This document shows positions 3,501-12,314 of a DNA stretch of 21,762 bases, one piece after another. The number at the start of each line of letters is the position of its first letter. Within the stretch, counting starts at the first letter, position 1. Under the pieces are notes generated by a model. That model did no database searches and had not been told where the DNA came from. It was given only the letters and a program-made list of their open reading frames with translations. The translations under genes and the position numbers were made by a program. The stretch spans positions 1 to 21,762 of the forward strand of contig CAZSBV010000005.1 of NCBI GenBank assembly GCA_964605105.1, written 5' to 3'. The DNA is from an uncultured Lachnospiraceae bacterium (GTDB lineage Bacteria > Bacillota > Clostridia > Lachnospirales > Lachnospiraceae).

Positions 3501-4931
3501 CTATAAAACAGTAACTGTCAATTCTTCTTCATCCGTGGTTCTCGTCGCAATAAACTGTAAACCTTTATCCCTGCACTTCTGATACAGTTTGTCTCTTAAT
3601 GCAGTGGATAATTTTTCCACTCCATCAATCAAAATAATCTGTAAACCTTTCGGGTTCTGGATTGCCACATCAATACACAAATCTAATTTCTGTCCGTCAG
3701 ATAAATTAGACACAGGAAGTCCGTTGATTAACGGAGTACCATCTTTTACCGTCAGTCCCTCAATCGGGATAACACAATTCGTAAGAATTTCCCCTGGAAG
3801 ATTTCTAGCTTTTTCAATCAAGGAAGTAAGATGTCTGGAAGATTTCGCTAATTCCTCAATCTCTTCCTGTAATGACTGCATACGATGGTATTCGTTAATA
3901 TGTGATTTCATATTTTCAATGTTAGTGGCTTCTTCCATAAGCGGATGTACATCCTGAGGTTCCATACCAATATAATCACTGTATGCTTCCACTTCCGCAT
4001 CATACTGTGCCACGGCTGCAAGGAATTTGTTTTCAATTACGGAAATTTTATCCAGCTTCTTATCTGCAAGACTATCATTTTCTGCCTGTAAGGTTTTAAT
4101 CTGTTCATGTAACTTTAAAATATCCTTATCAATCTGGTTTCTCCGGTTTTCTATTTCTGTATTAAGTGCCGCTGTTTCAATTTCCTTATCTGCTTCAAAT
4201 TTTCTTACCTTTGCATCCCGGTTTGCCTTTAAAGCATTTGCTTTCTGGATATTCTGATTCGTTCTCTGGATCCTTTCAATCTGCTTGTAAATCTCGCCAA
4301 CACTGACTTTTTCCCATTTCTCAATTTCATATCCAGTAGGAATTGTGGCTGCAATATCTTCTACAAACGCTTTTTTATTACGAATATCACGGTCAATATC
4401 CCTGCGTCTGCGGTAGTAATCTCCTTTTTCAGACTGAATATCATTCAGTACACAAAGGATGTTCTGTTCATAATTAACCCATGCTGGAATCTCACCAAAC
4501 CACTCTTTGATTTTGTTCAAATCCCAAGGATATTCAATCATATCCAGAATAATGGTGTTTTGCTGCTGTTCCGGCATGTTAATGAATTCTACAGGGTTCA
4601 ACTGTAGCTGGGTAAAGATATCCTTTAAAAACGTTTCCGGACTGGCAACCTCAAGACCATTCTGTTTAATACTCTTATAATCTGCCTGCGTGGTTCTTGC
4701 TTTCCGGTTAATTCTAAGCCCTGTATCCGTTTCTACAAGCACTTCGCCTTCTGTTTCACCATTACGCACTATGTATTTTCGTTCCGATTTATTGGTAAGT
4801 GCATATTTAATAGCATCTATCACCGAAGATTTCCCTACTCCGTTCTGTCCGGAAAGTTCCATGTTATTTCCACCCACTTCGATTTCTTTAATTCCAAATA
4901 AATTTTTAACTCTTAACTTTACAATGTTCAT
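3501..4931 (-). CDS. SMC/SbcC/Rad50-like AAA ATPase with central coiled coil
   Basis: Walker A GQNGVGKSS near the N-terminus, a long coiled-coil middle, and C-terminal LSDGQK signature plus LILIDGVE Walker B-like motif. Confidence 0.75.
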   Translation of the reverse strand: MNIVKLRVKNLFGIKEIEVGGNNMELSGQNGVGKSSVIDAIKYALTNKSERKYIVRNGETEGEVLVETDTGLRINRKARTTQADYKSIKQNGLEVASPETFLKDIFTQLQLNPVEFINMPEQQQNTIILDMIEYPWDLNKIKEWFGEIPAWVNYEQNILCVLNDIQSEKGDYYRRRRDIDRDIRNKKAFVEDIAATIPTGYEIEKWEKVSVGEIYKQIERIQRTNQNIQKANALKANRDAKVRKFEADKEIETAALNTEIENRRNQIDKDILKLHEQIKTLQAENDSLADKKLDKISVIENKFLAAVAQYDAEVEAYSDYIGMEPQDVHPLMEEATNIENMKSHINEYHRMQSLQEEIEELAKSSRHLTSLIEKARNLPGEILTNCVIPIEGLTVKDGTPLINGLPVSNLSDGQKLDLCIDVAIQNPKGLQIILIDGVEKLSTALRDKLYQKCRDKGLQFIATRTTDEEELTVTVL

Positions 4932-5985: not shown

Positions 5986-6720
5986 CTATACATCTAAAAT
6001 CATTTGTGCATTAGCTTCTCTAATTAATTCCTGCAAATATAAAGGTGCTTCGTAGTTGTCAACTAGCTCATGAGCTTCAAAGAGGTTTTTTCTCTTTAAA
6101 GCCTTATAAGATTTTGGTCTACCGTCATCCTGATAAAGTCCAAATTCTCTTTTAATCTGACTGTAGATATCGGTGTATACTTTCTTTCTGATAGAATCAT
6201 CTCTATATGCTTCTGCATTTTTCCCACCAAGAACTTCTACACCTTTTCTTTTTACATGGCTGGAAAGTTCGTCCGCTTCACTTCCGTATAAAGGAATGTC
6301 AAATTCTAACTTATCCAAACGTTTCTCCATATTTACTGTTCTGGTATCAAGAAGAACAATAGCCTGCATTTCTTTTGAAAGATTTGGCATTTGATACTGT
6401 CCATTTTTTCTAAGTTCTGGAAGAACTTCACTTGTTACCCAGTGCTTAAAGCGTTTAGCGGATTCTAACTTACTGCCAAAGATTAAAGCGTATAAACCAG
6501 ATTCGTTAATAATCCAAGACTCTTGTACTCTTCCTACTTCATCCATGATGGGATGTTTCATCCTGTCATCTTCTTCCACATGTCTTGAAATTGCCTTATG
6601 TGGTTCATTATATTTCAGCGATTCCGCTACATCCTTTCCTACAAAATAAATTTCATTATTTAATTCAACTGTTCTTATCTGCCCGAACTCGGCATTATTA
6701 AAAGTTTGTAATTCGTTCAA
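5986..6720 (-). CDS. Phage antirepressor (BRO-N domain + ORF6C-like C-terminal domain)
   Basis: N-terminal FNNAEFGQIRTVE..EIYFVGKDVAESLKY...INESGLYALIFGSKLESAKRFKHWVTSEVLPELRKNGQY is a typical BRO-N signature. The C-terminal half resembles the ORF6C antirepressor domain. TTG start with SD GGAGGAG. Confidence 0.8.
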   Translation of the reverse strand: MNELQTFNNAEFGQIRTVELNNEIYFVGKDVAESLKYNEPHKAISRHVEEDDRMKHPIMDEVGRVQESWIINESGLYALIFGSKLESAKRFKHWVTSEVLPELRKNGQYQMPNLSKEMQAIVLLDTRTVNMEKRLDKLEFDIPLYGSEADELSSHVKRKGVEVLGGKNAEAYRDDSIRKKVYTDIYSQIKREFGLYQDDGRPKSYKALKRKNLFEAHELVDNYEAPLYLQELIREANAQMILDV

Positions 6721-7409: not shown

Positions 7410-7619
7410 TTAACCAATCAGATATTCCAACGTCACACCGAAGTAATCAGCAATCTTAATAAGCTTATCTGTCTTTGGCATTGACTTTCCCGATTTCCAA
7501 TCGCTAAATACTGCTGATGAAAAACCTACTTCTTTAGCAAGTGCGTAAAAAGTAATTCCTCTCTTATTCACTAATTTTTCTAATTTGTGAAAACTGTTAA
7601 TTCTGTTTTCCTTGCTCAA
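7410..7619 (-). CDS. Cro-like XRE-family HTH regulator (69 aa), first gene of the early operon
   Basis: GITFYALAKEVGFSSAVFSDWKSGKSMPKTDKLIKIADYFGVTLEYLIG is a canonical HTH_XRE. TTG start with SD AGGAG 7 nt upstream. Divergent from the immunity-side promoters. Confidence 0.8.
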   Translation of the reverse strand: MSKENRINSFHKLEKLVNKRGITFYALAKEVGFSSAVFSDWKSGKSMPKTDKLIKIADYFGVTLEYLIG

Positions 7620-7637
7620 ATTCCTACTCCTTTCTAC

Positions 7638-7666
7638 TTGATATTAGTTAGGATATTCTGTATAAT
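7638..7666 (+). promoter_or_regulatory. Promoter P1 (TTGATA-17-TATAAT)
   Basis: -35 at 7638-7643, exactly 17-nt spacer, consensus -10 at 7661-7666. Confidence 0.6.
7646..7659 (+). promoter_or_regulatory. Operator-like 14-mer AGTTAGGATATTCT, copy 1 (inside the P1 spacer)
   Basis: Exact reverse complement recurs at 8058-8071. Partial copies at 8196-8203 (GTTAGGAT) and 8729-8738 (AATATCCTAA). Confidence 0.5.
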
Positions 7667-7688
7667 ACTATTTAGCCTTTCATGGCAA
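7659..7688 (-). promoter_or_regulatory. Candidate early promoter (PR-like) for the cro-like gene, sharing its -10 region with P1
   Basis: On the minus strand: -35 TTGCCA (7683-7688) and -10 candidates TATTAT (7662-7667) or TATACA (7659-7664). Hexamer quality and spacing (15-18 nt) are imperfect. Confidence 0.35.
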
Positions 7689-7715
7689 ATTTTGATTGCA
7701 AGGAGGTATTTTACC

Positions 7716-7799
7716 TTGAAAGCGGTTTTGAATTTGCCTGTTCCTTTAATTAGAGGTCGCAAACGTAGTACCAAAAAACTTCAAACTGGTCAAATGTAA
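7716..7799 (+). CDS. Possible 27-aa basic peptide ORF on the P1 transcript
   Basis: SD AAGGAGG 9 nt before a TTG. Translates to (M)KAVLNLPVPLIRGRKRSTKKLQTGQM. Very short and has a non-ATG start. Confidence 0.3.
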   Translation: MKAVLNLPVPLIRGRKRSTKKLQTGQM

Positions 7800-8018
7800 T
7801 AATTGATACAGCGTTAATTACTCAGAGAAGAGTTTAAAACTCATGCGTTGGCATCGTTCGTCTTGCCCACTGTATTGTTTATTCCTCTATTTCCTCCAAC
7901 AAAAGGCATCGCACGCTGAACTAAAACTGCATAAGTGGTGGAGTACTTAAAGAAACATTTGGTTCCGTCAACTGTGACGAAAGTCTGCAAAGTACATAAG
8001 GTTAAAAAATTTAGCATC

Positions 8019-8053
8019 AAACTGTCAAGAACGGAACTCTTGGCAGTTTTTTG
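8019..8053 (+). terminator. Rho-independent terminator ending the P1 transcript
   Basis: Stem CTGTCAAGA/TCTTGGCAG (8022-8030 / 8038-8046; 9 bp including one G-U), 7-nt loop, then TTTTTT at 8047-8052, with an A-tract upstream. Confidence 0.65.
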
Positions 8054-8057
8054 TTTA

Positions 8058-8071
8058 AGAATATCCTAACT
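8058..8071 (-). promoter_or_regulatory. Operator-like 14-mer, copy 2 (inverted), just upstream of the P2 -35
   Basis: AGAATATCCTAACT is the exact reverse complement of 7646-7659. Confidence 0.5.
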
Positions 8072-8076
8072 GACTA

Positions 8077-8105
8077 TTGAAAATAGTTTGGAAATCCGTT
8101 ATAAT
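8077..8105 (+). promoter_or_regulatory. Promoter P2 (TTGAAA-17-TATAAT) for the XRE + 150-aa cassette
   Basis: -35 at 8077-8082, 17-nt spacer, consensus -10 at 8100-8105. Confidence 0.6.
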
Positions 8106-8217
8106 ATGAATTGACGAGAAACATAATATTTTAGTTTGAATTTCCCAACCACAATTTTATTTTAATACTGTTTTTCAAATATGTCAATACTTTTTGTTAG
8201 GATTTTCAAACTATTTT
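8080..8217. promoter_or_regulatory. 18-bp inverted repeat pair AAAATAGTTTGGAAATCC (8080-8097) / GGATTTTCAAACTATTTT (8200-8217)
   Basis: 17/18 complementary. The first arm lies in the P2 spacer. The second abuts the SD of 8229..8534. Confidence 0.5.
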
Positions 8218-8228
8218 AGGAGGTCTTT

Positions 8229-8534
8229 ATGTACGAGAGGTATTGTGAACTTAGGGATAAAAAAGGATATAAAGATTCTGATATTTCTAGACTTGCAGAT
8301 ATTACAAAATCAACTTTTACTGATTGGAAAAACGGCAAAAGCAAACCAAATGCTGAAAAGCTTATTAAAATCGCTAAATGCCTTGATACTACTGTTGAAT
8401 ATATTGTTACGGGGGAAAAACCTGAAATACCAAATATTGAAACAGAATATTTTGAATTGATGGAATTATATGAAAAATTAAAAGAAGAACAAAAAGTTGC
8501 CGTAATTAATTTATTGCGTTCATTTACTACTTGA
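8229..8534 (+). CDS. XRE-family HTH regulator (101 aa), paralogous to the Cro-like protein
   Basis: ISRLADITKSTFTDWKNGKSKPNAEKLIKIAKCLDTTVEYIV shares the S.F.DWK.GKS.P...KLIKIA motif with 7410..7619. SD AGGAGG upstream. Confidence 0.8.
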   Translation: MYERYCELRDKKGYKDSDISRLADITKSTFTDWKNGKSKPNAEKLIKIAKCLDTTVEYIVTGEKPEIPNIETEYFELMELYEKLKEEQKVAVINLLRSFTT

Positions 8535-8544
8535 GGAGAGCATA

Positions 8545-8997
8545 ATGGGATTATTTAAAAAGAAAATAAAAATGCCATCTGATATAGACAGAATCGAAAT
8601 AGAATATCAATTACAAAGGTTAAATTCTTATAATAACGGAGCTACAAAGGTAAATGATGTGGATCTTTTTATAAATGATGTTACATCAATAAAAGAAATT
8701 GTTGAAAACTTAATAAAATATGAGATTAAATATCCTAATTATTTCAATCCTAAACCATCTGAAATATTAAAAAATTTTAAAACAAATAATAAATTGATAT
8801 TAGAAAAAAACTTTATTGATAGATATATAATATCAATAGAACGAAAATTATTAGATTATTCTACCATGAGAGGAAAAACAAATAATTTTAACAAAAAAGT
8901 AGATTTGTTCAGGTATTATGCTGGAGAATTTGAACCGGAAAATGTCAATTACTTTGAAAGATGTTTGATTGAAAGATTCCCAGAATACTTACAATAA
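8545..8997 (+). CDS. Hypothetical protein (150 aa), very AT-rich, no recognisable domain
   Basis: SD GAGGAG 6 nt before the ATG and 10 nt after the XRE stop. Sampled 60-nt lines are about 25% GC versus about 38-48% in flanking phage genes. Confidence 0.6.
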   Translation: MGLFKKKIKMPSDIDRIEIEYQLQRLNSYNNGATKVNDVDLFINDVTSIKEIVENLIKYEIKYPNYFNPKPSEILKNFKTNNKLILEKNFIDRYIISIERKLLDYSTMRGKTNNFNKKVDLFRYYAGEFEPENVNYFERCLIERFPEYLQ

Positions 8998-9008
8998 AAG
9001 GACAAAAG

Positions 9009-9033
9009 ACAGCAGTTTTTAATTTACTGCGTT
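9009..9033. terminator. Weak imperfect hairpin between convergent genes (possible bidirectional terminator)
   Basis: GCAGT/ACTGC core (9012-9016 / 9026-9030) with T-rich flanks on both strands. Short stem. Confidence 0.25.
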
Positions 9034-9049
9034 CCTTTGCCCTTTAATA

Positions 9050-9160
9050 TTAACAGTATCTTTCAATAAACAGTTTGAGAAATTTATTTATGTAAGCTAA
9101 AGCTTTATGATTATCTTTAATTTTCTCTAACTGTAAAATAATTTCATCGTAATTACTCAT
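9050..9160 (-). CDS. Unannotated 36-aa ORF (candidate SOS-controlled small regulator)
   Basis: Translates to MSNYDEIILQLEKIKDNHKALAYINKFLKLFIERYC. SD GGGAGG 8 nt before the ATG. Perfect -10 hexamers and a GAAC-N4-GTTC box lie upstream. Confidence 0.45.
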   Translation of the reverse strand: MSNYDEIILQLEKIKDNHKALAYINKFLKLFIERYC

Positions 9161-9191
9161 ATTATGTACCTCCCAAATTGCAAAAACACTG

Positions 9192-9298
9192 GTTGTGAAA
9201 TTCCTTGATTATACAATACAATTATATGAGGAACATTTCAAGAACAAACGTTCTGTTTCTTACTATTTGTTTTATGTTAATTGAAGGAATTTTGCAAC
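9192..9298. promoter_or_regulatory. 15-nt inverted repeat GTTGTGAAATTCCTT (9192-9206) / reverse complement of GTTGCAAAATTCCTT (9284-9298), bracketing the LexA-box promoter
   Basis: 13/15 identity between arms. A weaker third AATTCCTT copy lies at 9373-9380. Confidence 0.4.
9208..9254 (-). promoter_or_regulatory. Promoter with a Cheo/LexA-type box: AGAACAAACGTTCT (9241-9254) over the -35 position; TATAAT at 9221-9226 and TGTATAAT at 9208-9215 (minus strand)
   Basis: The GAAC-N4-GTTC palindrome matches the core of the Firmicutes LexA operator CGAAC-N4-GTTCG. It lies 14 nt upstream of a consensus -10. Confidence 0.5.
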
Positions 9299-9490
9299 TG
9301 CTTTTTAATATTTAATTTTATATATTTTTCAACAGTTTAATTATTCGATATTGGTAACTCATAACTTTTCACAATTCCTTCCCCAATTTAAAAATATAAA
9401 GTACTTCATCTTAAAAAAATACATATTTTAGTATATTAAACCCAATTTGTAAAAGCGTAATATATTTTCACCCTAAAATTCCCCTTTAAA

Positions 9491-9520
9491 TTGACGTTAT
9501 ACTACAAAGTATGTTAGAAT
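9491..9520 (+). promoter_or_regulatory. Promoter P3 (TTGACG-18-TGtTAGAAT) for the CI-like operon
   Basis: -35 at 9491-9496 and extended -10 TG-t-TAGAAT at 9512-9520. An 8-bp 5-prime hairpin CTATAGGG/CCCTATAG at 9529-9566 follows. Confidence 0.5.
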
Positions 9521-9630
9521 TTCCTTAACTATAGGGAGTCCGACCACGAATCAAAACCCCCTATAGAAGATTGAAGTTGTCTCTCTCTTAAGACTTCTTC
9601 ATTTTATACGAAAATTAGAATGGAGGAAAT

Positions 9631-10422
9631 ATGGCAAAAAACAAAAATGAAGAAAACATTTATTTAAAATTAGTTTCAAACACCGAAAATTATATGGAAA
9701 GTATGCGCTGCAATATTGGCTTGCTCAGGACTCATTATGGTTGGTCTGTCAGGGTATTGGCAGAAAAGGCTAATATATCCGAAGATACGCTCCAAACTTT
9801 CCTTAAAGGGAAATCTAAGGATTGCAATTTATTTACCGCTATAAGGCTTGCCAAAGCTTTAAACGTAAGCGTTGACGAGCTTGTCGGTGCTGAAACAATC
9901 GAAAAAGAAACCAGGGAATGCTTAGCAATGTCCCGGAATATGCCGGACTATGTGCGCTACCTAAACAGAGTATTTGTGAAACATCAGTACAAAATCCATA
10001 GCCAGTTTGACAATGAAAGCAAGAACATACCGGTTCTCTTGCCGGAATGCGTAAACGGGTACTTGAAAACAACTAACATTACATCGACAGTATGTGTAGA
10101 CCAACTGACAGATAGTGCAAAATCAAAAGTGTGCTTAGGGTTGCAAATCCCTTGCGATCACTACGAGCCTTTCTATATGCCGAACGATATTGTTCTATTA
10201 TCTGCTGACAGAAGTGCAGTTAACAACGAACGCTGTGTTGTCTGCCACAAGGGGAATTACTTCTTCGCAATTAAAAAGATATATATAGAGGGTTCTGAAA
10301 AGAAAGTTAAATACATTTCTATGATTGGGGGGAATACCGTTGTTTTCCCGAATGAAATAGATGATAAGCTGGGTTATGTTGTTGGATTCTTAAATCCGGA
10401 CGGTTCTTGGGGAATTAGATAA
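9631..10422 (+). CDS. CI/LexA-like repressor: XRE HTH + S24-like C-terminal domain with apparently degenerate active site
   Basis: HTH at WSVRVLAEKANISEDTLQTFLKGKSKDCNLFTAIRLAKALNVSVDELVG. The C-terminal region aligns by eye to the S24 fold (IPCDHYEPFYMPNDIVLL / FFAIKKIY / LGYVVGFL). Confidence 0.7.
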   Translation: MAKNKNEENIYLKLVSNTENYMESMRCNIGLLRTHYGWSVRVLAEKANISEDTLQTFLKGKSKDCNLFTAIRLAKALNVSVDELVGAETIEKETRECLAMSRNMPDYVRYLNRVFVKHQYKIHSQFDNESKNIPVLLPECVNGYLKTTNITSTVCVDQLTDSAKSKVCLGLQIPCDHYEPFYMPNDIVLLSADRSAVNNERCVVCHKGNYFFAIKKIYIEGSEKKVKYISMIGGNTVVFPNEIDDKLGYVVGFLNPDGSWGIR

Positions 10423-10439
10423 AGTAAAAGGAGGAAAAT

Positions 10440-10748
10440 ATGGCAATTAAAAATTGTCCGAAATGCGGAAGTAATAATATTTCATACCAAAGAGAACAAA
10501 CAGCAAATGTTGGTGCTGGAACAAACAAGGTGGTAATAAAAGAACCCAAAAGTCATGGTTGTTTCTGGTGGTTAATGATAGGTTGGTGGTGGAAGCCAAT
10601 ATACTGGATATGCATAGGTTGGTGGTGGAAACTATTTTTTGGAAGAAGAAAAAGTGGTTTAAATTTTAATGCTAGTAAATCCATCAATCATACTGTTGCA
10701 ATATGTCAGAATTGTGGTTATACTTGGAAAAATAAATTAAAGAAATAA
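10440..10748 (+). CDS. Split zinc-ribbon protein with a Trp-rich membrane hairpin (102 aa)
   Basis: CPKCG...CQNCG flank GCFWWLMIGWWWKPIYWICIGWWWKLFFG, which contains the internal repeat IGWWWK. SD AAAGGAGG upstream. Starts 17 nt after the CI-like stop. Confidence 0.65.
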   Translation: MAIKNCPKCGSNNISYQREQTANVGAGTNKVVIKEPKSHGCFWWLMIGWWWKPIYWICIGWWWKLFFGRRKSGLNFNASKSINHTVAICQNCGYTWKNKLKK

Positions 10749-10874: not shown

Positions 10875-12314
10875 ATGCCAAAGAAAAAAAATGAGACAAT
10901 TAACTCAAGTGAAAGCACATCAAAGAAAATTGAGTCTGTAGCCGCCTATATCCGTGTAAGTACAACCGAACAAAAATTGCATGGTATTTCCCTAGATGCT
11001 CAGCGAATGAAACTGAAAGAATATGCAGAATCCCACAATATGAAAATTGTTGATTGGTATGAGGACGAAGGTGTTTCTGGAAGAAAACTGATAAGAAAAC
11101 GTCCGGAACTGCAAAGAATGATACAAGATGCGGAACAAAAGAAATTTGAAAAAATTATTTTCATTAAACTTGACCGCTTTTTCCGTTCTGTAGCTGAATA
11201 CCACGAATGTATGAAAAGAATATCCCCAGTGCTTTGGGAAGCTACTGAGGAAGAATATAACTTAACTACTGCTAACGGTAGAATGTTGGTAAATATGAAG
11301 CTGACTATTGCAGAATTAGAAGCAGATCAGACCGGAGAACGTATCAGGATAGTAAATGAATATAAAACTTCAAACGGGCAGCCATTAACCGGAACTATGC
11401 CATTCGGTTTTAAAATTGCAATTGATGATAAAACAGGCAGAAAGAAAATTATAAAGAATCCAGAACAGCAAGAAGCTTTAGAAGATTTATTAGAATACAT
11501 ATTTGCCTACAACAGTAAAAGAAAAGCACTTATGTATTTAAAAACAAAATATAATGTTGTAATGCCTTATAAATCTCTTACAACTTTATTAAGGAACACT
11601 ATGCTGTGTGGAGAATATAGAGGAAATAAAAAATACTGTGAAGCATATTTAAGCCGTGAAGAATTTGATAAATTACAGGAAATAGCAAATAAAAATAATA
11701 TAAAATGCAATACCGAAAAAAAAGAATATGTTTTTAGCGGCTTAATCAAATGCCCTGTGTGCGGCTGCAAACTTTCCGGCAATACAACTAAATGCAGAAT
11801 ACCAAGTGGCAGGGAATATTGGTATAAAAAATACAGATGCCTAAACTATTTTAACAACAATACATGCGAATTTAATAAATGTGTCAGTGAAAATGCTTTG
11901 GAGAGAGAATTGCTAAATATCTTTGAAGATTATGTTGAAAGCGTTAAATCAAATTTAAATGATGTTGAAAATTCTGATTTTGCAAATATTCCACAATACA
12001 ATGAGGAAGAAATAAATGAACAGATCGACAGGCTGAATTATTCATGGCAGACTGGTAAAATCAGAAAAGTTGAGCAATACGAAAGTCAATATGAAGAATT
12101 AATTAAAAAATTAGAATTGGCAAGAGAAGAAAAGAAAAAAGTTGTAATTCCGGACTTTTCAAAAGCAGAAAGTATTTTTAAAACAGGATGGAAAGATATT
12201 TATGCGCAGCTCGGCGAAGAAAATAAAAGGGCATTTTGGCGGTCCCTTATTTCTTCAATAGAAATTAATTGGACTACTGAAATAAAAGAGATAAAAAAGA
12301 TTAATTTTTTTTAG
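10875..12314 (+). CDS. int: Large serine recombinase (phage integrase)
   Basis: N-terminal resolvase domain AAYIRVSTTEQ...DEGVSG...RPELQRMI...KLDRFFRS, a recombinase domain, a Cys-rich zinc ribbon CPVCGCKLSG...YRCLNY...CEF, and a coiled-coil tail. Confidence 0.9.
   Translation: MPKKKNETINSSESTSKKIESVAAYIRVSTTEQKLHGISLDAQRMKLKEYAESHNMKIVDWYEDEGVSGRKLIRKRPELQRMIQDAEQKKFEKIIFIKLDRFFRSVAEYHECMKRISPVLWEATEEEYNLTTANGRMLVNMKLTIAELEADQTGERIRIVNEYKTSNGQPLTGTMPFGFKIAIDDKTGRKKIIKNPEQQEALEDLLEYIFAYNSKRKALMYLKTKYNVVMPYKSLTTLLRNTMLCGEYRGNKKYCEAYLSREEFDKLQEIANKNNIKCNTEKKEYVFSGLIKCPVCGCKLSGNTTKCRIPSGREYWYKKYRCLNYFNNNTCEFNKCVSENALERELLNIFEDYVESVKSNLNDVENSDFANIPQYNEEEINEQIDRLNYSWQTGKIRKVEQYESQYEELIKKLELAREEKKKVVIPDFSKAESIFKTGWKDIYAQLGEENKRAFWRSLISSIEINWTTEIKEIKKINFF

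Follow-up and report, generated by a model that had tools for sequence, protein, structure and literature searches.

The window analysed here, a stretch of 21,762 nucleotides (nt) of contig CAZSBV010000005.1 from an uncultured Lachnospiraceae bacterium, corresponds to a temperate siphovirus-type phage or prophage, and this work is centred on a minus-strand open reading frame (ORF) of 36 amino acids (aa) that follows a LexA-type palindrome. Comparison with related loci suggests that this small ORF probably encodes a LexA-repressed micro-antirepressor, AimX/SinI-like and working without arbitrium, which would disable the short CI-like repressor of the same phage (101 aa). The nearby phage repressors appear to lack any recognisable autocleavage apparatus, which makes a relay from the SOS response to induction through a very small protein the best reading of the locus. 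Such a relay had been proposed in a first-pass annotation of this DNA; the micro-antirepressor itself is supported as the best reading, whereas the target chosen there, a neighbouring protein of 263 aa, is not. Binding of LexA, translation of the ORF, physical contact with the repressor and an influence on induction are all steps that we infer from the sequences.

A conserved small gene and its LexA-type box

The elements of the small gene are given below. L-numbered loci (L003, L032 and so on) are related loci that were fetched via neighbouring genes.

9050..9160, minus strand, stop codon included: 36-aa small ORF, candidate micro-antirepressor
9169..9174, minus strand: Shine-Dalgarno sequence GGGAGG, 8 nt before the ATG, read from the sequence
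9184..9195, minus strand: putative degenerate second LexA-like site CAACCAGTGTTT in the mRNA leader, with one mismatch to GAACn4GTTT
9208..9218, minus strand: -10 region TATTGTATAAT, with TATTGT at 9218-9213, 17 nt from the -35, and an overlapping TATAAT at 9213-9208
9236..9241, minus strand: -35 hexamer TTGAAA, from the promoter scan, aligning to TTGACT of L032
9241..9254: putative LexA (Cheo)-type operator AGAACAAACGTTCT, core GAAC-N4-GTTC at 9242-9253, abutting the -35

The ORF at 9160..9050 translates to MSNYDEIILQLEKIKDNHKALAYINKFLKLFIERYC, and both the frame and its Shine-Dalgarno sequence lie where the first-pass annotation had placed them. Homologues in the same position and orientation were recovered by tblastn and ORF listing at about 24 syntenic loci. 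The family comprises proteins of 32-50 aa, with a GGAGG-type Shine-Dalgarno sequence at the same place in the relatives, and across these loci the proteins share the pattern Y-x2-I-I-x-L-V-x2-I-D-N-x3-L-x-Y-I-x-x-F-I, in which I7 and L21 form the conserved core. In three independent close pairs the ratio of non-synonymous to synonymous change (pN/pS) is 0.17 (window and L032), 0.19 (L014 and L024) and 0.10 (L018 and L010), most substitutions being synonymous. Because of the syntenic homologues, the low pN/pS and the conserved length and Shine-Dalgarno sequence, the small ORF is, as judged from these comparisons, a genuine conserved coding gene under purifying selection. Its coding status in the first-pass annotation thus agrees with synonymous-biased conservation (pN/pS 0.10-0.19) over about 24 loci.

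The gene had also been described as unannotated, which is correct in that it is missing from an ORF track with a 60-aa limit, but the protein is already on record as predicted protein P0121 (NCBI/Logan data). An exhaustive phmmer search of 1.84 billion representatives gave 8 clusters of 36-aa relatives ending in RYC, and a protein search with the small ORF padded to 40 aa returned only the identical protein and one relative of 89% identity. The small protein is amphipathic and helical, not hydrophobic. No match was found among the Pfam (including the SinI family, PF08671), PHROG, NCBIfam or PADLOC families. The family is widespread in Lachnospiraceae phages and had not been named before. As a separate observation, the C-terminus (9050-9058) reads R-Y-C in about 10 of the 14 class-A small proteins seen (the classes are described below), with KYC, RYK or RYR in a few; the C-terminal Cys is kept in most of these 36-aa cytoplasmic proteins.

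Regarding the promoter, the palindrome at 9241-9254, a TATAAT at 9226-9221 on the minus strand (14 nt downstream of the box) and TGTATAAT at 9215-9208 were all found as first described, and the exact GAAC-N4-GTTC box is indeed the only copy in the window. Homology with the TTGACT-17-TATTAT promoter of L032, with which the promoter scan agrees, points to TTGAAA (9241-9236)-17-TATTGT (9218-9213) as the window promoter; TATTGT aligns to TATTAT of L032, and TGTATAAT or TGTTATAAT occupies the same place in L003, L021 and L037. With this assignment the box would abut the -35 instead of covering it, and the earlier statement of a box over the -35 has to be corrected accordingly.

The best evidence on the box comes from the related loci. 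When the 130 nt upstream of the small ORF were taken from 20 loci (2.6 kb in total) and compared with the remaining 150 kb as background, 8 exact GAAC-N4-GTTC boxes were counted in the small-ORF promoters vs 1 in the background, an enrichment of about 400-fold. The clostridial LexA consensus is GAACnnnnGTTC/GTTT (PMC4234289), and the window box matches it. Using this consensus (GAACn4GTTC/GTTT) and a maximum distance of 170 nt upstream of the start codon, a GAACn4GTTY box was found in 17 of the 24 loci. The loci without such a box are about seven (L031, L029, L020, L010, L034 and L038, together with L028, which has only AAACn4GTTT).

Two arrangements of the box have been observed. In L019, L011, L014, L026, L030, L018 and L028 it is located within the spacer of a near-consensus TTGACA-17-TATAAT promoter (for instance TTGACAaCCGAACAAGTGTTCGATATAAT in L019), and in the class of the window (L032, L036, L037, L003 and L021) it lies 84-103 nt ahead of the ATG, either at the -35 or immediately upstream of it. 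In L032, whose small protein is 89% identical to that of the window, the promoter DNA has diverged and the exact box (CAGAACATTTGTTCTG) is retained. Several copies, such as those of L019 and L030, agree with the complete Cheo consensus CGAAC-N4-GTTCG at one flank or at both. A k-mer search of the intergenic regions for a shared operator, such as one of the 263-aa protein, revealed only AT-rich words, promoter hexamers and the LexA box.

The core of the box does not vary among phages that have only 38-50% identity between their 263-aa proteins and carry unrelated CI helix-turn-helix (HTH) domains. Besides, L031 carries a 97%-identical 263-aa protein with the same HTH and a different small-ORF allele, and has no box, while L036 and L037 have the box and lack the 263-aa gene. 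Over the related loci as a group, the LexA-type box is a conserved feature of the small-ORF promoter. Because the box does not follow the 263-aa protein and its core stays invariant across unrelated CI HTH domains, host LexA would be its most parsimonious binder.

The putative second site at 9184-9195 overlaps the left arm of an inverted repeat (see below). L035 (CGAACAAGTGTTT) and L007 (CGAACGTGTGTTT) have a good box in the same part of the leader, which is conserved; in the window the site is weak, and could have a role in LexA control. The locus L010 (around 3667-3760) has lost about 95 nt in comparison with L018, whose small protein is 92% identical, the promoter and the LexA box among them, and it may be an SOS-blind derivative.

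The short CI-like repressor as predicted partner

The genes and candidate operators that surround the small ORF are as follows.

7410-7619, minus strand: 69-aa Cro-like HTH protein, first gene of the leftward early operon
7646..7659: candidate CI operator AGTTAGGATATTCT at the Cro-side promoter, 14 nt, binding predicted
8058..8071: candidate CI operator copy, perfect and inverted, 398 nt away, upstream of the promoter of the CI-like gene
8196..8207: third candidate CI operator copy GTTAGGATTTTC, 11/12, 125 nt beyond the second
8229-8534, plus strand: 101-aa CI-like HTH repressor, the proposed target
8545-8997, plus strand: 150-aa protein, convergent with the small ORF
Between the small ORF and the 263-aa gene: intergenic region of 470 nt
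9631-10422, plus strand: 263-aa protein with HTH and S24-like fold, divergent neighbour of the small ORF

The 101-aa protein matches Pfam HTH_3 and Phage_CI_repr. Its AlphaFold2 model (mean predicted local distance difference test, pLDDT, of 91) consists of a five-helix XRE-type HTH, a linker of 10 residues and two C-terminal helices (72-83 and 86-98), the C-terminal two-helix domain comprising residues 72-98, approximately nt 8442-8522. Neither Pfam nor the model gave any S24 domain. In Foldseek the best match of the model was SinR in the SinR/SinI complex (1b0n_A, 99 aligned columns), followed by 9iaq (AimC) and 9sf2 (the phi106 repressor-AimX complex). The profile of the 101-aa family matched 9iaq_A over its full length (positions 6-96; E=5e-9), 9sf2_A with E=1.2e-7 and SinR (1b0n) with E=2.6e-4, in the last case mainly through the HTH. 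According to these models and profiles, the repressor has the SinR/AimC architecture. The three operator copies likely belong to this repressor and seem to be arranged for looping, a separated layout that would need repressor oligomerisation.

In order to see which protein the small one follows, pairwise identities across 19 loci were compared by the Mantel test. The correlation of the small protein with the C-terminal domain of the CI-like repressor was r = 0.76 (p=0.0002), compared with 0.34 for the CI HTH domain and 0.40 for the 263-aa protein, and four classes were recognised in which CI C-terminus and small protein match. Recombinant loci make this particularly clear. L014, L013 and L024 share small protein and CI C-terminus (90-98%) and carry three unrelated HTH domains; L018 and L010 have the same C-terminal class and small proteins of 92% identity with different intervening genes; L032 retains the small protein (89%) and the C-terminus of the window, with another HTH. 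On the other hand L035 has the HTH of the window (91%), yet a class-B C-terminus and a class-B small protein. L036 and L037 combine a class-A CI with a class-A small ORF. Breakpoints are found inside the CI gene and beside the 263-aa gene, and never between the CI C-terminus and the small ORF. As far as these alignments go, changes in the small protein go together with changes in the C-terminal domain of the 101-aa repressor.

The closest known system is AimX-AimC of the extended arbitrium Bacillus phages (phi106, BMBtp14 and Wbeta; PDB 9iaq and 9sf2). There, AimX (29-80 aa) is encoded just downstream of a LexA site, convergent with the gene of the short HTH repressor AimC, whose C-terminal oligomerisation domain it binds and with which it co-evolves; AimX proteins are reported to be highly divergent among themselves (bioRxiv 10.1101/2025.11.23.689978). 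The window shows the same kind of layout, with the 69-aa Cro-like gene (minus), the 101-aa CI-like gene (plus), the 150-aa gene (plus) and the small ORF (minus) in this order; small ORF and repressor gene are directly convergent in L032, L036, L037, L029 and L030. As in that system, a small helical ORF (32-50 aa in this family) lies just downstream of a LexA-type site and its product co-varies with the repressor, which is short (80-140 aa for AimC), without autocleavage domain and divergent from a Cro-like gene, and has a five-helix HTH that about 10 linker residues connect to a helical oligomerisation domain at the C-terminus. However, the hosts are here Lachnospiraceae (Clostridia) instead of Bacillus, the small proteins have no sequence similarity to AimX, and the interaction is predicted. 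Upstream of the small gene there is neither an AimR or tetratricopeptide-repeat (TPR) protein nor a signal-peptide ORF, the place being occupied by the 263-aa gene or other cargo, and therefore the locus is not an arbitrium system.

The architecture also resembles that of SinI-SinR from B. subtilis (PDB 1b0n), in which the XRE-type HTH repressor has a C-terminal two-helix oligomerisation domain and SinI, a small two-helix protein, antagonises the repressor by forming a heterodimer with that domain. Nevertheless, SinI-SinR is a chromosomal switch for biofilm formation and sporulation, and SinI is not under LexA control. With the profile of the small family no match was found in PDB and no similarity to AimX was detected. 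That the small proteins might be homologues or mimics of the CI C-terminal helices was also considered and discarded, the hhalign probability being 1.5%, which is not significant.

The gap of 610 nt between the Cro-like and CI-like genes also contains a FuFi-1 RNA (Rfam RF02986) at 7892-8052 of the plus strand, with 128.5 bits vs a gathering score of 59.6. It lies downstream of a plus-strand TTGATA-17-TATAAT promoter that has a candidate CI operator in its spacer, and it was found in 0 of 18 related loci.

Proposed relay and alternative explanations

The events would take place as follows. In a lysogen, host LexA would hold the small-ORF promoter off. After DNA damage, RecA would become active and LexA would cleave itself and leave the operator at 9242-9253, perhaps also the weak leader site, so that the small helical protein could then be made. 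This protein would bind the C-terminal two-helix oligomerisation domain of the non-cleavable 101-aa repressor and would prevent its oligomerisation on the separated operators (7646-7659, 8058-8071 and 8196-8207), with release of the Cro-like/early lytic operon.

LexA-controlled phage antirepressors that act on non-cleavable repressors are known from other phages, one of them being Tum of phage 186, with about 146 aa. The same logic has been described for the Gifsy proteins GfoA and GfhA (PMC3121763), N15 AntC and Sar, and in all these relays repressor and antirepressor form specific pairs, as proposed here. Nevertheless, these proteins are unrelated to the small protein and larger (Sar/YopT of SPbeta, 72 aa; Sar of SPbeta/phi3T, bioRxiv 10.1101/2025.11.27.690993), and most of them come from Proteobacteria or Bacillus. 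Moreover, the repressors are of other types: Sar acts as a DNA mimic on a repressor with an integrase fold, and the C-terminal domain of 186 CI is of a different kind. Another comparison, limited to the idea of a small protein as effector, is provided by the modules of transcription factor and small ORF in linear plasmid-like vibriophages (TF-smORF; Silpe et al. 2023, PMC10432266) and by VqmAPhi-Qtip, where a transcription factor gene also stands beside the gene of a small repressor-inactivating protein. Those TF-smORF modules are independent of SOS, the transcription factor activates the small ORF and the cI repressors are autoproteolytic. The small genes studied here, in contrast, have a LexA box, often in a consensus promoter that needs no activator, and nothing functionally links the 263-aa protein to the small gene.

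Several observations weigh against a LexA-controlled antirepressor of the 101-aa protein. The box has no significance from the window sequence alone, where 0.28 exact boxes are expected by chance and 25 of 100 shuffles contain at least one. As far as the promoter can be assigned, the window box lies upstream of the -35 and abuts it, a position less canonical than the spacer; LexA control, as predicted from the boxes, is not universal in the family, with about 7 of the 24 loci lacking one; and the consensus matched is the clostridial one, which may not be that of the host Lachnospiraceae. The phage also carries a Bro-N/ORF6C gene of antirepressor type, and the small protein has no similarity detectable by sequence to AimX, SinI or the CI C-terminal domain. 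Finally, the co-variation could partly come from physical linkage, since both genes lie at most about 1.2 kb apart; as seen in the alignments, linkage leaves the pattern of breakpoints unexplained, and the pair persists across different intervening genes.

This last point is also the main issue for a different view of the gene, in which the co-variation reflects linkage and the SOS-induced protein has another role, as a modulator of LexA or RecA in the manner of GIL01 gp7, a recombination directionality factor of the serine recombinase nearby, a toxin or a factor of exclusion. Other roles are indeed known for small phage proteins linked to SOS (gp7; PMC4551915), the small gene lies at most 1.7 kb from the integrase in the window, and some contribution of linkage to the co-variation with the CI C-terminus may be real. 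However, a partner conserved across hosts such as LexA or RecA would not predict four co-varying specificity classes, and the small protein stays paired with its CI C-terminus whatever genes lie between them. The integrase differs among loci in type and position, being a serine enzyme in the window and L036, a tyrosine enzyme in L035 and L037 and absent from the vicinity in L029 and L030, and the amphipathic, helical and non-hydrophobic character of the small protein also speaks against such roles. This explanation is consequently considered unlikely.

The 263-aa protein was the target originally suggested, as a non-cleavable master repressor inactivated by the small SOS-induced protein. Its AlphaFold2 model (pLDDT 89) shows an HTH, a helical linker and a beta-rich domain, and Foldseek relates it to lambda CI, 186 CI and LexA, with template modelling (TM) scores of 0.56-0.65 to their C-terminal domains. 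At the sequence level only the HTH is recognised in Pfam and PDB, and no match to S24 proteins was obtained in either of them. The family (more than 170 members of 262-263 aa) has no GDSM-type catalytic Ser motif; its invariant residues are C65, H118, C140, C175, H177 and K215, and it contains the invariant motif PCEHYEP at a position that may roughly correspond to that of GDSM in S24 peptidases. Judging from these residues, the region could serve in metal or redox binding, or could be an autopeptidase variant that relies on Cys. This CI/LexA-like architecture without the catalytic Ser, together with the divergent position beside the small ORF in most loci and the possibility that the conserved core of the small family (I7 and L21) touches a conserved partner, speaks for the 263-aa protein as target. 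Nevertheless, there is no co-variation: its identity is 97% between the window and L031 and 86% between L018 and L019, vs only 40% and 33% for the small proteins. In L036 and L037 other genes replace the 263-aa gene while small ORF, box and CI class are kept, and a divergent CI/Cro-type pair with repeated operators is found elsewhere (7410-8534). The protein seems to be a frequent and dispensable neighbour and not a likely target; the description of it as apparently non-cleavable is in line with the missing Ser motif, and its place in the relay, as it had been drawn, is very improbable.

It could also be thought that the palindrome is an operator of a phage regulator (the 263-aa HTH protein or the CI-like repressor), the small gene then not being under SOS control, and it is true that XRE-type proteins bind palindromes. 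Nevertheless, the GAAC/GTTC core does not change where the 263-aa proteins are 38-50% identical and the CI HTH domains unrelated; L031 has the identical 263-aa HTH and no box, and L036 and L037 have a box and no 263-aa gene; several copies (L019 and L030, for example) fit the full Cheo consensus; and the candidate operators of the CI-like protein have a different sequence (GTTAGGATATTC) from the LexA-type box. There is thus little probability left for such an operator. Finally, a transcript that works chiefly as antisense RNA, or through convergent transcription, on the 150-aa/CI operon, the ORF being secondary, fits the convergent orientation, the single weak hairpin that follows (9012-9030) and an idea formerly held for aimX, but it is most improbable considering the strong purifying selection on the peptide, the conservation of the protein family while the downstream DNA varies, and the AimX precedent, where the antisense model was tested and the protein turned out to be the effector.

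The LexA-controlled antirepressor of the 101-aa repressor remains the preferred explanation, and one extension of it deserves mention. The 263-aa protein, with its invariant Cys and His residues (PCEHYEP) where the S24 serine would be expected and the conserved mRNA leader of two hairpins before its gene, might be a second sensory regulator of the small-ORF promoter, by which SOS would be integrated with another signal. This is a doubtful idea; if it were true, the protein would be the counterpart of AimR outside arbitrium, or the locus a TF-smORF module fused to SOS control, and the small-gene promoters without LexA box would be accounted for.

Neighbouring elements and implications

The remaining features of the region are given below.

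5986-6720, minus strand: Bro-N/ORF6C protein, antirepressor-type gene of the early leftward operon
9012..9030: weak hairpin (GCAGT-9 nt-ACTGC, flanks rich in T) that separates the small ORF from the convergent 150-aa gene
9192..9206: GTTGTGAAATTCCTT, left arm of the inverted repeat, inside the conserved 5' leader AAGGAATTTC...
9284..9298: right arm of the inverted repeat, a 13/15 partner, specific to the window
Between the 263-aa gene and the serine recombinase: 102-aa Zn-ribbon membrane protein
10875-12314, plus strand: serine recombinase
After the serine recombinase, minus strand: lysin and tail genes

The relatives of the window come from metagenome-assembled genomes of Lachnospiraceae (Agathobacter, Acetatifactor and Wujia) and from gut and rumen viromes. 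Among GenBank phages, blastn of 8200-10500 gave no match and tblastn only Dulem virus 39, which has the same module with the small ORF annotated as 'hypothetical' and without LexA box. No defence system was assigned by PADLOC, and the Rfam scan of 8900-9800 gave no match. The Bro-N/ORF6C gene belongs to phrog_463 (E=2e-70), and a LexA box was not found near it.

The inverted repeat of 15 nt, with its 13/15 partner, is present as first described. Shuffling of the intergenic region yields repeats of equal quality in 15% of cases, and L032 (the closest small-ORF relative), L036 and L037 have not conserved it, so that the idea of phage operators as a second layer of control was dropped. The 5' leader of the small ORF to which the left arm belongs is conserved in L003, L007 and L021, and this arm overlaps the putative degenerate LexA site at 9184-9195. 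The hairpin at 9012-9030 was not called by the terminator scan; it is possibly a bidirectional terminator, and L036 and L037 have a similar segment after their small ORF.

A mosaic junction has been located at 9366-9453. The window is nearly identical to L031 from the 263-aa gene to about 9372 and then diverges, while it retains the small-ORF promoter of L031 (TTTACA-17-TAAAAT, 9453..9425, minus strand), its Shine-Dalgarno sequence and a decayed remnant of 10 codons (GTG at about 9369). From this alignment, a different small-ORF cassette with its own LexA-box promoter was evidently joined here, and transcription from the distal promoter that was retained could run across the LexA box.

The 263-aa gene is preceded by a conserved leader (9529-9600, plus strand), the same element being found in L003-L037. 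A GC-rich hairpin that varies (9529-9566) comes first, then a linker, which reads GCCAGAACTTGAAG in most relatives, and then a second hairpin (9573-9600), which is followed by ATTTTAT and the Shine-Dalgarno sequence. The second hairpin, specified by hand, is 84% paired across 22 loci vs about 50% when slid, with compensatory changes; RNAalifold on the leader alignment gave no structure, hairpin 1 aligning poorly, and no Rfam family matched the leader. The leader also occurs in L036 and L037, there in front of unrelated genes (a 107-aa gene and DUF5067), and may serve as an attenuator or as the leader of cargo genes that are expressed in the lysogen.

To our knowledge, most prophage repressors of gut Firmicutes have no recognisable cleavage domain, and the route by which DNA damage (caused for example by antibiotics or colibactin) induces such prophages is largely unknown. 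The family presented here carries a conserved LexA-type operator and diversifies together with the oligomerisation domain of a SinR/AimC-type repressor. If the proposed relay is true, the small-antirepressor mechanism of the Bacillus arbitrium phages would extend to gut Clostridia and would work without arbitrium, and the four co-varying classes would provide natural specificity pairs for studies on the recognition between repressor and antirepressor. Besides, gene tracks with a 60-aa cut-off miss key regulators of this kind, and the combination of a LexA box and a micro-ORF convergent with a short HTH repressor would then serve to predict which gut prophages are inducible by SOS.

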